DNA of 64,000 bases from the sequence record PQ724393.1. The stretch is one strand, 5' to 3'. The stretch is from a phage. Both the position numbers and the translations under genes were made by a program. The notes beneath the pieces are model-generated. The model did no database searches. It had not been told where the DNA came from and saw only the letters and a list, made by a program, of their open reading frames with translations. Of the stretch, positions 15,400 through 47,387 are shown piece by piece (positions within the stretch are counted from its first letter, which is position 1; every line of letters begins with the position of its first letter).

Positions 15400-15586
15400 T
15401 TACGAAAATAGCTTTATCACCATTTGCATCAGTGACTTCATAGGTATCTTCGTGGTAAAGTGGGATAATCCAAGTCACACCATCACCAGCAATAATATGG
15501 ATAGCTTCTTGGTCTTTTGATACGATTTCATATTCTTCGAACAATTCGAATACAGAAATCTTAGAGCCCGTACACATTGCACTCAT
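15395..15586 (-). CDS. hypothetical protein (63 aa)
   Basis: Track ORF; overlaps upstream ORF end. Confidence 0.45.
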   Translation of the reverse strand: MSAMCTGSKISVFELFEEYEIVSKDQEAIHIIAGDGVTWIIPLYHEDTYEVTDANGDKAIFVI

Positions 15587-15782
15587 ATTGTTCCCTTCTT
15601 TTAATCAGTTGACGATGAGCCTTTTTAAGTTTACGAAGCTGGCGCTTAGTCGGCCGTGCAACATAAGCTTGAGTAGTTACTCGTCCAAAAACACCATACT
15701 TAGGTGAAGGAGAATCAATAAAGACTTCCCACTGGCAGGAGTATCCGTATACCGCTTTAGAGAATTGAGTTAAGACAAACAT
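15561..15782 (-). CDS. small basic protein, PTKRQ-motif family
   Basis: 73 aa; C-terminal ARPTKRQLRKLKKAHRQLIKRRE shared with ORFs at 16573, 40612, 47163. Confidence 0.5.
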   Translation of the reverse strand: MFVLTQFSKAVYGYSCQWEVFIDSPSPKYGVFGRVTTQAYVARPTKRQLRKLKKAHRQLIKRREQYECNVYGL

Positions 15783-15783
15783 A

Positions 15784-16218
15784 TTAACCTCGATTCATAA
15801 AGGCATTAAAAATCTGGTCGTCAATTGAATAAACTGGAGCTTCCAGAATTTTCAACAGACTGTTTTTGATATACTTGCTAGGGATATCCATATTAACGCG
15901 GTCGTTCAATTCGTTGTCCGGGTGGATATCTTTAAATTCGAATCCTTCAAATTCAACCTTGTCCGGAAACCCGTCAGCGAAAAAATAAACCAATTGGTGC
16001 ATTGCATTGAGCGAAAATAATTTAGACTTAACAGCAATAAGTTCTTGCCAATGGTTTAATTCTCTGTTAAGAAGTTTATGAGCGAATACAATTCTATCGT
16101 CGCTATCAACAATAAAATAACCTAGGTACTGATGGTCGTCGCTCCAAAACATCCTGTATGCTTGTGCATTCGGATTTTTACAACGAAGCTTTTTAATAAC
16201 CAAAGTTCTGTTAATCAT
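15784..16218 (-). CDS. hypothetical protein (145 aa)
   Basis: Start reset to ATG 16218 just after sp stop. Confidence 0.5.
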   Translation of the reverse strand: MINRTLVIKKLRCKNPNAQAYRMFWSDDHQYLGYFIVDSDDRIVFAHKLLNRELNHWQELIAVKSKLFSLNAMHQLVYFFADGFPDKVEFEGFEFKDIHPDNELNDRVNMDIPSKYIKNSLLKILEAPVYSIDDQIFNAFMNRG

Positions 16219-16219
16219 T

Positions 16220-16513
16220 TTACTCACCTGTAACCTCTTTAACGATGTTTTTGTTATCGAAATTAGCGTCACAATACAAAACATAGTTGTACTGCATAAC
16301 ACCGGTTGAAGCTAATTGGTCGGACACTTCTTTAACCATGTCAGGACGGTCACGTTTAGTGATGTTCATGATATCGGCATAAATCTGATGTTCAACATCA
16401 GTTTGGTCGGCAGTCATAGACCACTCACAAAGGTCTTTATCCAATCCGGCCGTTACTGGAGCTGTACCACATGATGCTACGGTAATAATTGCTGCGATTA
16501 ATAACTTTTTCAT
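16220..16513 (-). CDS. sp: periplasmic protein, Spackle-like (61.3 position)
   Basis: 97 aa with signal peptide/lipobox VASC; SD GAGGAGA; promoter upstream; T4 sp is also 97 aa and periplasmic (identity by position and size only). Confidence 0.55.
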   Translation of the reverse strand: MKKLLIAAIITVASCGTAPVTAGLDKDLCEWSMTADQTDVEHQIYADIMNITKRDRPDMVKEVSDQLASTGVMQYNYVLYCDANFDNKNIVKEVTGE

Positions 16514-16541
16514 TTCAATCTCCTCGTTAGTTGATAGGTCT

Positions 16542-16571
16542 ATAGTATCACCACCATAGACCGTTGTAAAC
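16542..16571 (-). promoter_or_regulatory. conserved early promoter upstream of sp-like gene
   Basis: GTTTAC-18-TGATACTATAGACCTATCAAC. Confidence 0.6.
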
Positions 16572-16572
16572 T

Positions 16573-16812
16573 TTATTTTAACGAATCTTCCAAATAAATT
16601 TTACGGAATTTACGTTTTGTCTGACGAATCTGACGTTTAGTAGGCTTCACAGGAAATTCGAAGAACTCCACGTATTCCTGTTCATAATCATTATGACCTA
16701 CTGAAAGAACTAGTTCCCAGCTGCTTACGGTGCGTTGGATAAACATATTATGCTTACCAAAAGATTTATTCCAAAAAGAACTAGGAGTTGGCTTCATTAG
16801 TACAATATTCAT
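16573..16812 (-). CDS. small basic protein, PTKRQ-motif family
   Basis: 79 aa; C-terminal VKPTKRQIRQTKRKFRKIY. Confidence 0.5.
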   Translation of the reverse strand: MNIVLMKPTPSSFWNKSFGKHNMFIQRTVSSWELVLSVGHNDYEQEYVEFFEFPVKPTKRQIRQTKRKFRKIYLEDSLK

Positions 16813-16953
16813 TTATTCCTCGCCTTCATGTTTATGAGCAAATTCTTCTAATTCACGGTCACAATCTAAACAGGTTGCATTATCCCAAGCATCAAATACT
16901 GCTCGGTCTTCACTTACTGAACAACCACACACTTCACATTCAACTTCTTCCAT
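16813..16953 (-). CDS. zinc-ribbon small protein (46 aa)
   Basis: Not in track; own translation MEEVECEVCGCSVSEDRAVFDAWDNATCLDCDRELEEF...; SD GAGGAAA; packed between flanking genes. Confidence 0.4.
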   Translation of the reverse strand: MEEVECEVCGCSVSEDRAVFDAWDNATCLDCDRELEEFAHKHEGEE

Positions 16954-17157
16954 TTAGATTTCCTCAATGCGGGCATCATATTCAAAAACTTTATTGTCAT
17001 TAACAAAGGCTTTCACCAGTGCATTATTCACTTCTGCATACTGCACTGTAACCCATTCAATCATTTTTTGGTCACTAACATCCAGCGCAGTTTCTTTGGT
17101 AAACATATTACCGTTTTCAAACCAACCAATAAATACTACGATCTCTAATTTAAACAT
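16954..17157 (-). CDS. dmd: Dmd-like antitoxin (discriminator of mRNA degradation)
   Basis: 67 aa; VVFIGWFENGNMFTKE and QYAEVNNALVKAF resemble recalled T4 Dmd; position next to gene 41. Confidence 0.6.
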   Translation of the reverse strand: MFKLEIVVFIGWFENGNMFTKETALDVSDQKMIEWVTVQYAEVNNALVKAFVNDNKVFEYDARIEEI

Positions 17158-45666: not shown

Positions 45667-45692
45667 GATAACCTCCAGTAGTTGATAGGTCT

Positions 45693-45721
45693 ATAGTATC
45701 ATTTCTACTGGAGATGTAAAC
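45693..45721 (-). promoter_or_regulatory. conserved early promoter
   Basis: GTTTAC-17-TGATACTATAGACCTATCAAC; arms CTCCAGTAG/CTACTGGAG. Confidence 0.6.
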
Positions 45722-45723
45722 AA

Positions 45724-46065
45724 CTAATAAAAACTTTTTTCACCTGCTTGCCCACTAAACCATGCGGATTGAGTGTTCTCTTTCCGTTGGTGTTTAATAC
45801 GAATAAGGTATTCGTTCCTGATGGCGCAGAGTTCATCTCTGAAGTCGACTGCCAACTTAACCTGCTTACGGTCTAGATTTATTAAGGCCTGCGTCTTCGC
45901 GGCCAAGGCCAGTCTCTTGTAGTCTCCTTCTTCACAATCGGTTTTGTAAACCTTCTCGGCGAATTGGTGTTTAAATTCATTATCATAGTCTTCAATAGAC
46001 TGTTTCATGGCATTAGAGTATTTCAACTCTGCTTTTATAAGGTCATAACTAAATTGTTCGAACAT
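45724..46065 (-). CDS. hypothetical protein (113 aa)
   Basis: Track ORF. Confidence 0.5.
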   Translation of the reverse strand: MFEQFSYDLIKAELKYSNAMKQSIEDYDNEFKHQFAEKVYKTDCEEGDYKRLALAAKTQALINLDRKQVKLAVDFRDELCAIRNEYLIRIKHQRKENTQSAWFSGQAGEKSFY

Positions 46066-46075
46066 AATTTCACCT

Positions 46076-47056
46076 TTATTTCAGAAGTGTAACTTCAGCG
46101 ATTTCGCTCCAGTCATTTTTATCGGTGGCAATGAAGTCCGCCAGATAAAGAGCCGTACGTAATGATACGTTACGAAGACGAGATACATTGGCCTTCATCC
46201 AGGACAGTGCTTGATAAGTCTCAGCATCAGTCAGACCTCGATTTTGCAACATATCAGTGGAAAGGATAACGTCTTCAACACGAACCATAATCTCTTCGTT
46301 AGAGTGAACTCCGAGGTCTAAGTAAACTGAACGAGATACTAAAGCCTGGAGGTGTGGAGCAAGTTTAGTGCCACGTTCTAATTCACGGTCAATATCAACG
46401 TTGGTGATGAACACGATGGTGCCTTCATATTCGAATTCTTTATCGATATTTTTATCATCGAGGTAAGAACTTGAAGTGCTCCAGCACACCTTACGTTTTT
46501 CACCGGTATCCAATGCCGCTTTTAACAGGTTCAGGATATCCATATCAGAGAATACATCGACATCATCGATAAGAAGAACACTATTAGGGCCGCGGTTATT
46601 CCAAAGCTGCTCGTAAAGACCGATTCCACTAATCTTTCCGTTGATTGATTTATATTCGATAGTTTCATTTTCGTGGGCATTCTGTAATGCTTTATCCAAA
46701 GAATACGTTTTACCAATACCTGCGGCACCAGAGATGATAAGGGAACGAATTTTACCATCGATGATTCCGTTAGTCATCATGTTCATTACTTTAAAACGTT
46801 TGTTGATGCGATGCTTCATTTCTTCAGCGGATTCAGTAACCATTGCAGGAGCTTCAGCACCTTCCATTTCAACATCACATTTGAACACCCATATACCACG
46901 TTCAACACCATCAATCTGTACGAATACCTTACCATCACCGAGGTGAGCTTCGGATTCATGAATTTTGTTAGGGAACCAGGTTTTACCTGAACTCATGAAC
47001 GTACCAGAGATTTCATTACCGCGATAGATACCTTTGTTGATTTTGATAGTTAACAT
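46076..47056 (-). CDS. P-loop NTPase (Walker A/B), family unassigned
   Basis: Start reset to ATG 47056 (SD GGAGAA); Walker A ISGAAGIGKT, Walker B VLLIDDVD. Confidence 0.6.
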   Translation of the reverse strand: MLTIKINKGIYRGNEISGTFMSSGKTWFPNKIHESEAHLGDGKVFVQIDGVERGIWVFKCDVEMEGAEAPAMVTESAEEMKHRINKRFKVMNMMTNGIIDGKIRSLIISGAAGIGKTYSLDKALQNAHENETIEYKSINGKISGIGLYEQLWNNRGPNSVLLIDDVDVFSDMDILNLLKAALDTGEKRKVCWSTSSSYLDDKNIDKEFEYEGTIVFITNVDIDRELERGTKLAPHLQALVSRSVYLDLGVHSNEEIMVRVEDVILSTDMLQNRGLTDAETYQALSWMKANVSRLRNVSLRTALYLADFIATDKNDWSEIAEVTLLK

Positions 47057-47093
47057 TATATTCTCCGTTTCACTCAGTAGATTTGATAGGTCC

Positions 47094-47122
47094 ATAATAA
47101 CATGCTCTACGAGGTTGTAAAC
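47094..47122 (-). promoter_or_regulatory. putative early promoter
   Basis: GTTTAC-17-TATTAT upstream of P-loop NTPase gene. Confidence 0.45.
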
Positions 47123-47140
47123 ACTTTTTTGCACTAAACC

Positions 47141-47165
47141 CAAAAAAGGACCCCGAAGGGTCCTA
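47141..47165 (-). terminator. rho-independent terminator
   Basis: AGGACCC-TTCG-GGGTCCT followed by TTTTTTGGG. Confidence 0.7.
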
Positions 47166-47387
47166 AATTGCGCTCCAATAATTATGGAAGCGGATATTAT
47201 TGATAGCCCAGTTAATACAACGTCTTATCTGCTTAGTCGTAGGCTTGCATACGTACTTGAAATTGATTCTTCTACCGGTTTCTCTACAAACTACTTCAAG
47301 ATACCAACGACAGGTTTTATGAGGTCTTCCATATGACAGGAAAACCTTGATTTCTTCTTTAACGGTAATAAGAGTTGTGGTTGTCAA
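47163..47387 (-). CDS. small basic protein, PTKRQ-motif family
   Basis: CKPTTKQIRRCINW; stop inside terminator hairpin. Confidence 0.45.
   Translation of the reverse strand: MTTTTLITVKEEIKVFLSYGRPHKTCRWYLEVVCRETGRRINFKYVCKPTTKQIRRCINWAINNIRFHNYWSAI

Follow-up and report, generated by a model that had tools for sequence, protein, structure and literature searches.

Four divergent TifA-family paralogs in one JS98-like coliphage, likely RNA-dependent counter-defence inhibitors

Four small open reading frames (ORF1 to ORF4) were studied in a 64,000-nt phage stretch, record PQ724393.1, which is called the window here and whose numbering is used for all its coordinates. They encode divergent paralogs of TifA (ToxN inhibitory factor A, the product of T4 gene 61.4), likely RNA-dependent counter-defence inhibitors with different targets; we put the probability of this reading at about 0.8. 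The window comes from a JS98-like T4-like coliphage of the genus Dhakavirus, with 94-96% identity to Escherichia phages MN04, JS98 and fDHCT2 by megablast. It follows the T4 early and middle gene order (gene 39, motB to dda, modA, 61, dmd, 41, uvsX, 43, 45, 46/47, 55, 49, nrdC, tk to e), and every plausible gene lies on the minus strand. The four ORFs, of 61-79 amino acids (aa), share this strand and lie among the T4-type early and middle genes:

15561..15782, minus strand: ORF1, 73 aa, TifA-family paralog of the JS98 orf29 type (translation, DUF7279, JS98 annotation).
16573..16812, minus strand: ORF2, 79 aa, orthologue of T4 tifA (gene 61.4) by position (translation, DUF7279).
40612..40797, minus strand: ORF3, 61 aa from its probable start, RB69 ORF087c / JS98 orf76 type (translation, DUF7279, PHROG 3272, starts of orthologues).
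47163..47387, minus strand: ORF4, 74 aa from a TTG start, the most divergent TifA-family paralog of the four.

An earlier note on this DNA had picked out the four ORFs as a dispersed paralogous family sharing a C-terminal PTKRQ-type motif. They were found where it had placed them, apart from the start of ORF3 (see below), and the minus-strand translations gave the peptides it had quoted, which are ARPTKRQLRKLKK for ORF1, VKPTKRQIRQTKRK for ORF2, TRPTKKMMRQFKRL for ORF3 and CKPTTKQIRRCINW for ORF4. The strand had been left unsaid. Reading the four ranges on the plus strand was ruled out, as stops occur throughout all of them; the genes are therefore on the minus strand.

All four proteins matched the Pfam model PF23945/DUF7279, which is independent and curated and has a gathering cut-off of 24.5 bits. 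The matches were E 9.5e-19 and 67.5 bits for ORF1, E 8.6e-20 and 70.8 bits for ORF2, E 4.4e-13 and 49.4 bits for ORF3, and E 6.2e-12 and 45.7 bits for ORF4. The model also matched TifA of T4 (E 2e-20, 72.7 bits) and of RB69 (E 2e-17, 63.0 bits). The fact that these two proteins and ORF1-4 fall on one Pfam model indicates that DUF7279 is the TifA family. With PHROG profiles the four fell into related groups (PHROGs 3272, 2375, 8921 and 12748, of which 3272 is that of ORF3); no NCBIfam model matched any of the four.

The relationship was also seen without the Pfam model. In the shuffle comparison that the earlier note had named as able to overturn its claim, five of the six ORF pairs gave z 3.9-7.0 (Smith-Waterman scores against 2000 composition-preserving shuffles), ORF3-ORF4 alone being insignificant (z 0.8). 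Among the 1003 six-frame ORFs of the window the pattern PT[KRST][KR]..R occurred four times, always in ORF1-4; in shuffles it was seen 0.29 times on average and twice at most. Leave-one-out profiles, built from 94 family sequences minus the tested ORF and all sequences at least 33% identical to it, recovered ORF1 at E 4e-16, ORF2 at 6e-17, ORF3 at 8e-9 and ORF4 at 6e-7, with no other window ORF below E 0.05. Three profiles run on all six-frame ORFs yielded no fifth member in the window. ORF1-4 are thus genuine relatives, and the claim of paralogy was borne out by DUF7279, by the leave-one-out profiles and by a predicted fold common to ORF3 and ORF4.

TifA is found in T4, T2, T6 and RB69 (Srikant et al. 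eLife 2022, PMC9391042; Guegler et al. NAR 2023, PMC10853763). The T4 and RB69 proteins tie up the ToxN endoribonuclease in an inactive RNA-protein complex with cellular RNA, in particular 16S rRNA (PMC10853763). TifA accepts RNA of many sequences, 16S rRNA co-purifies with it, and the dissociation constant of RB69 TifA for RNA is 0.36-2.3 µM (PMC10853763). Its C-terminal helix has a conserved Pro-Thr cap (P53, T54) and solvent-exposed basic residues; in the P53A/T54A and K55A/R56A/R59A proteins, RNA binding, ToxN neutralisation and ToxN co-immunoprecipitation were all lost (PMC10853763). ToxN is touched by a variable sheet and loop, and specificity for ToxN maps to the variable loop, at residue 41 (PMC10853763). 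The characterised members are narrow in specificity, acting on toxins whose similarity to E. coli ToxN is 81% or more (PMC10853763). RNA binding has been measured for T4 and RB69 TifA only (PMC10853763); conservation of the mutated residues suggests it for ORF1-4.

The PTKRQ of the earlier note corresponds to P53-T54-K55-R56-Q57 of TifA. Its proposal of a nucleic-acid- or ribosome-binding module is supported and fits the published biochemistry of T4 and RB69 TifA (PMC10853763); what it had missed is that the family was already named, with a known anti-toxIN counter-defence function. A full-text literature search for DUF7279 returned no paper. The enterococcal 'tifA' is a different gene under the same name.

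The Pro-Thr cap and the basic cluster (K55, R56 and R59 in TifA numbering) were present in all four proteins. ORF1 (PTKRQLR) and ORF2 (PTKRQIR) have exactly the PTKRQxR residues mutated in the RNA-binding study. In ORF3 (PTKKMMR) R56 is conservatively replaced by K; ORF4 (PTTKQIR) has T at the K55 position but retains R56 (as K) and R59. The helix starts are encoded at 15609..15656 (RPTKRQLR, ORF1), 16600..16647 (KPTKRQIR, ORF2), 40636..40683 (RPTKKMMR, ORF3) and 47199..47246 (KPTTKQIR, ORF4).

In the 94 family sequences, the Pro-Thr and K55/R56/R59 positions were 78-99% conserved, and W, [KR]PT, R60, Q61, R63, K66 and R67 were conserved at 89-100%. The helix segment can be written [KR]-P-T-[KR]-[KR]-Q-x-R-x-x-[KR]-[KR]-x-F-[KR], with Pro-Thr almost invariant. 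The motif does lie in the C-terminal region, as first described, but stops short of the C-terminus itself, forming the start of a terminal helix some 20 residues long. Entropy in the strands and the loop exceeded 3.3 bits, which is near maximal. The N-terminal halves, previously called divergent, are conserved inside subfamilies and hypervariable between them; they are not unrelated, since a Trp of the second strand is conserved at 97% family-wide.

AlphaFold2 models of ORF3 (mean predicted local distance difference test score, pLDDT, 83) and ORF4 (mean pLDDT 77) were compared with the published description of TifA. The ORF3 model has strands at 2-9, 15-22 and 31-36 and a helix at 42-59; that of ORF4 has four strands and a helix at 51-72. 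In both, as in the TifA description, Pro-Thr immediately precedes the helix. The predicted fold, in which a C-terminal α-helix packs on a small three- or four-stranded β-sheet, matches that description, and ORF1 and ORF2 are assumed, by homology, to share the fold of T4 and RB69 TifA. A PDB sequence-profile search returned no solved structure, and Foldseek with the ORF3 model against the PDB gave nothing below E 0.5. The sole return of a BFVD search with the ORF4 model was an orthologue from Serratia phage CBH8 (E 2.5e-4).

From these data we infer RNA binding, counter-defence roles and targets for ORF1-4 along the following lines. The conserved helix of all four proteins would bind RNA, and the hypervariable N-terminal sheet and loop would provide each paralog with a different protein partner. 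The most probable partners would be different RNA-cleaving host defence nucleases, so that the phage would carry a small arsenal of RNA-dependent counter-defence inhibitors. The dispersal of the copies would reflect their residence in different hyperplastic early regions, which exchange small genes via composite terminator/promoter (PeSL) cassettes.

Several points weigh against this reading. The most direct is a published pairwise screen in which only the T2, T4, T6 and RB69 homologues neutralised any of six ToxN homologues or TenpN (PMC10853763). Table S2 of that paper lists 'tifA JS98', whose product is identical to ORF2, and 'tifA vB_EcoM_005', to which ORF1 is identical at 71 of 73 positions (97%; differences G13S and L48I); co-expressed in E. 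coli, these ORF2-identical and ORF1-like proteins neutralised none of the six ToxN homologues, nor TenpN (PMC10853763). Expression of the vB_EcoM_005 (ORF1-type) protein was verified in the screen (PMC10853763). Given this negative result, an anti-defence role for ORF1-4 is an extrapolation. The ORF3 and ORF4 types are absent from the homologues of Table S2. As for the ligand, TifA also binds single-stranded and double-stranded DNA in vitro with similar affinity (PMC10853763), so that the ligand may be DNA. ORF4 has a net charge of +4 over the 20 residues from Pro-Thr, against +10 in ORF1; with this weaker basic face, its RNA binding may be reduced. The ORF3 and ORF4 structures are predictions made from a shallow alignment of 27 sequences. 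Profile-to-profile comparison of the ORF3 and ORF4 subfamilies aligned just 15 motif columns, at a probability of 33%, and these two are linked only by the family profile and the predicted fold.

Family members in related genomes were counted with family profiles on six-frame translations:

Window: 64 kb scanned, 4 members.
JS98: 1-100 kb and 120.5-170.5 kb scanned, 3 members (ORF1, ORF2 and ORF3 types; no ORF4 type).
T4: 1-78 kb and 118.9-168.9 kb scanned, 1 member (tifA).
RB69: 41-53 kb scanned, ORF087c, plus the published tifA, hence at least 2 members.

With three profiles on the six-frame ORFs of the scanned regions, no further paralogs were found in JS98 and T4. The spread of each type was estimated by tblastn against 50,697 phage records. 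The ORF3 type was found in 373 records, mainly of Escherichia/Shigella T-even-like phages, with the gene beside pin. The ORF4 type was found in 212, mainly of Klebsiella, Enterobacter, Serratia and Citrobacter T4-like phages, where the match usually overlaps a gene annotated as nucleotidyltransferase. Close ORF1-type orthologues occurred in about 70 records, mostly of Escherichia phages, and the ORF2 and TifA types together in about 650. An exhaustive profile search of 1.84 billion cluster representatives returned just 69 at E ≤ 1e-3. Most family matches were small phage proteins of 48-161 aa, and all the named ones are phage proteins, including those of Pectobacterium phages vB_PatP_CB1 and PM2. 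The TifA family is small and, in its named members, confined to phages. The longer members (102-161 aa) had no second Pfam domain, and the genes around one of them gave no clue to function. Recent duplication or gene conversion was rejected as the origin of the copies. The DNA identity of the motif regions was 17-27 of 48 bases, which is the background level, and the longest exact run was at most 8; by this measure the copies are ancient.

A wider form of the proposal can be stated. The TifA fold may be a general scaffold for RNA-tethered inhibitors, in which the helix anchors RNA and the sheet and loop are re-targeted to various RNA-cleaving defence nucleases of hosts; the 2-4 paralogs per T4-like phage at separate hyperplastic loci would then be a multi-target arsenal, ORF4 may act with the RlaP-type nucleotidyltransferase whose gene it overlaps, and at least one of ORF1, ORF3 and ORF4 would inhibit a non-toxIN defence. 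We regard this as tentative and, taken as a whole, somewhat more likely wrong than right.

A narrower explanation, which we consider rather unlikely, is that all four proteins inhibit type III toxin endoribonucleases of the ToxN superfamily, each tuned to another ToxN, CptN or TenpN variant that the phage meets in its natural hosts. The sole characterised members do inhibit ToxN, and within the narrow range of toxins given above, and the loop that determines specificity is the most variable part of the family. However, the ORF1-type and ORF2-type proteins failed against the six ToxN homologues and TenpN, no sequence feature ties ORF3 or ORF4 to ToxN, and ORF4 is coupled to an RNA-repair-type nucleotidyltransferase gene, not to dmd.

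Somewhat less probable still is a role of the four proteins as general early RNA binders of phage physiology, acting in mRNA or rRNA stability, translation or host shut-off, with no part in defence inhibition. Such a role would agree with the binding of many RNA sequences by TifA and its co-purification with 16S rRNA, with conservation that falls on the RNA-binding helix of the family and not on the partner-binding surface, and with the lack of anti-toxin activity in two paralogs. However, presence and copy number vary among close relatives, the ORF4 type being absent from JS98 and the ORF3 type apparently destroyed in T4, so that an accessory counter-defence function fits better than core physiology. 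N-terminal halves that are conserved within subfamilies and hypervariable between them also suggest specific partners. Chance likeness of the motif among unrelated small basic ORFs, or ORFs that are not genes, is excluded: the ORF3-ORF4 pair (z 0.8, 15 columns profile to profile) is what could be put forward for it, and it is already refuted by DUF7279 matches at E <=6e-12 for all four, leave-one-out recovery, five of six pairs above shuffles, orthologues at fixed loci in hundreds of phage records and the agreement of the predicted folds.

The gene context (dmd, the adfA slot, pin and the RlaP-type gene) supports divergent TifA-family paralogs acting in counter-defence, without proving it. ORF1 and ORF2 are located in the neighbourhood of dmd, with the following features:

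16954..17157, minus strand: dmd, inhibitor of the RnlA/LsoA toxins (Pfam Dmd E 5e-20, JS98 annotation), upstream of ORF2; it marks the 'anti-TA island'.
16815..16953, minus strand: 45-aa CxxC...CxxC ORF (46 codons with the stop), which fills the gap between dmd and ORF2 exactly.

The concept of the 'anti-TA island' is that of PMC9391042. ORF2 is 47% identical to T4 TifA, and its tblastn match falls at the T4 61.4 position. It is identical to JS98 gp61.4, which is the name of this gene in the JS98 annotation and the 'TifA JS98' of PMC10853763. Adjacency to dmd, the synteny of T4 61.4, was found for ORF2 and not for ORF1, ORF3 or ORF4. The ORF1 gene string is sp-orf30-ORF1-orf28-61.1-61, and its slot is the place of T4 adfA (61.2), inside the published 'anti-TA island'.

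The JS98 orf30-type gene at 15784..16302 (minus strand) is also in the T4 adfA slot. A weak match to the C-terminal end of Pfam AdfA (anti-DarT factor A) covers its last 15 residues, at E 0.008 and 16 bits, below the cut-off; the gene may be an AdfA remnant or distant relative. The 45-aa ORF, MEEVECEVCGCSVSEDRAVFDAWDNATCLDCDRELEEFAHKHEGEE, has two CxxC pairs and a zinc-ribbon-like look. Its start codon overlaps the stop of dmd (TAAATG), and the ATG of ORF2 comes directly after the stop of the 45-aa ORF. Its sole family match was a sub-threshold one to NCBIfam CxxC zinc-binding, and it is without annotation in JS98.

ORF3 is at the conserved pin-49 locus; in RB69, JS98 and many Tequatroviruses the ORF3 type adjoins pin, the gene of the Lon inhibitor. 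RB69 ORF087c, of 59 aa, lies between pin and gene 49 and matches DUF7279 at E 8.5e-16. Two features flank ORF3 in the window:

40787..40930, minus strand: gp49.1 homologue, 47 aa, GTG start (compared with the JS98 49.1 translation).
40582..40606, minus strand: terminator-like G+C-rich hairpin directly after the ORF3 stop (consensus scan).

The bounds first given for ORF3 were 40612..40845. The 3' end stood; the start at 40845 (77 aa) did not. The true start is probably the ATG at 40797, giving 61 aa, because orthologues are 59-61 aa long with an MKTELIY start and the PHROG 3272 alignment begins at residue 17. The longer reading adds 16 codons that traverse, out of frame, the gp49.1 homologue, whose stop overlaps the ATG at 40797 (ATGAAAACTGA) in the usual T4 coupling arrangement.

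Comparison of the window (40787..41228, minus strand) with JS98 (L003 42011..42795) showed that the window is without the pin-like orf78 and the orf77 of JS98. These two lie between 49.1 and the ORF3-type gene in JS98, while in the window 49.1 abuts ORF3 directly. The window phage appears to be without a Pin homologue at this locus.

T4 Pin (161 aa; T4 L006 46897..47382) has a C-terminal tail, SDRMIQQYKRLHQMFYNT, outside the PinA Pfam domain (residues 4-141), and this tail shares 55% identity with the helix that ends the ORF3-type protein. In RB69, a Pin of 137 aa precedes the intact ORF3-type gene ORF087c (RB69 L010 6772..7374; JS98 L003 42011..42668 for comparison). T4 pin looks like a deletion fusion that has swallowed the 3' end of a TifA-family paralog, which would explain the single family member of T4.

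ORF4 occupies a variable slot between the nrdC.11 and nrdC.10 homologues (equivalent window positions 47144..47358). Its TTG start is five bases after GAGGT, and it shares 29 nt with the 3' end of nrdC.11. The flanking features are:

47359..48369, minus strand: nrdC.11 homologue, RlaP-type ('RNA repair pathway') nucleotidyltransferase, upstream of ORF4 (Pfam PF10127 E 7e-11; annotation of relatives).
47094..47164, minus strand: hairpin and T-run, then an early-promoter-like GTTTACA-16-TATTAT, directly after the ORF4 stop (scan, sequence).

The hairpin after ORF4 is G+C-rich, and the segment 3' of ORF4 resembles a PeSL-type terminator/promoter cassette bounding the slot. PeSLs are vehicles of modular gene shuffling in T4-type hyperplastic regions (PMC4122927, PMC2839356). 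The slot contains ORF4 in the window and unrelated small ORFs in JS98 and IME341. In JS98 (L003 49201..49619) it holds an unannotated ORF of about 76 aa (MYAIKNYKYGSY...), with the terminator/promoter segment duplicated on both sides; in IME341 (L002 8438..8692) it holds an unrelated 84-aa gene. Different small ORFs together with a duplicated segment are the behaviour predicted by the PeSL shuffling model. The nrdC.10 homologue beside the slot (46076..47143, minus strand) had sub-threshold AAA and STAND NTPase matches at residues ~129-237 and a weak helix-turn-helix match at its C-terminus, which suggests a P-loop NTPase.

The family, the motif and the function of the motif were already published, and two of the four protein types had already been assayed. 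Modestly new are the co-resident paralogy, two additional subfamilies (the ORF3 and ORF4 types) at conserved loci and the corrected gene models. The word 'paralog' is absent from both TifA papers (PMC9391042, PMC10853763), and the tested proteins are treated as homologues from different phylogenetic clusters (PMC10853763). These "TifA homologues from different phylogenetic clusters" are partly paralogs found together in one genome: JS98 carries both tested types and a third, and RB69, the phage of the biochemical work, carries a second member, ORF087c. Co-resident paralogs that fail against ToxN are good candidates for inhibitors of other defences, and the paralogs offer ready-made natural specificity variants on one RNA-binding scaffold.

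Compared with TifA itself, ORF1-4 belong to the same Pfam family and size class; ORF3 and ORF4 have the predicted β-sheet and the Pro-Thr-capped basic C-terminal helix, and ORF2 has the same position near dmd and 47% identity to the T4 protein. ORF1, ORF3 and ORF4 differ in being at other loci. The loop and sheet for ToxN specificity are unrelated in sequence in ORF1-4, and in the published screen neither ToxN nor TenpN was neutralised by proteins of the ORF1 and ORF2 types. KR-QI is changed to KK-MM in ORF3; ORF4, with T at the K55 position, has a far less basic helix. Four copies reside together in the window, against one in T4.

Dmd (T4 gene 61.5) is likewise a small protein made early by a phage, and it neutralises an endoribonuclease toxin of the host; its gene is just upstream of ORF2 in the same island. 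It belongs to an unrelated family (Pfam PF17587) and is without the Pro-Thr basic-helix motif. Dmd is a protein antitoxin mimic for RnlA and LsoA, and the TifA literature describes direct inhibition of RnlA (PMC9391042). A more distant likeness, drawn by the TifA authors, is that to HIV-1 Vif and APOBEC3G, in which a small viral protein needs RNA as a 'molecular glue' to neutralise a host antiviral enzyme (PMC10853763). Fold, target and outcome are unrelated in the two cases: Vif antagonises APOBEC3, while for TifA the proposal is sequestration of ToxN on abundant RNA.

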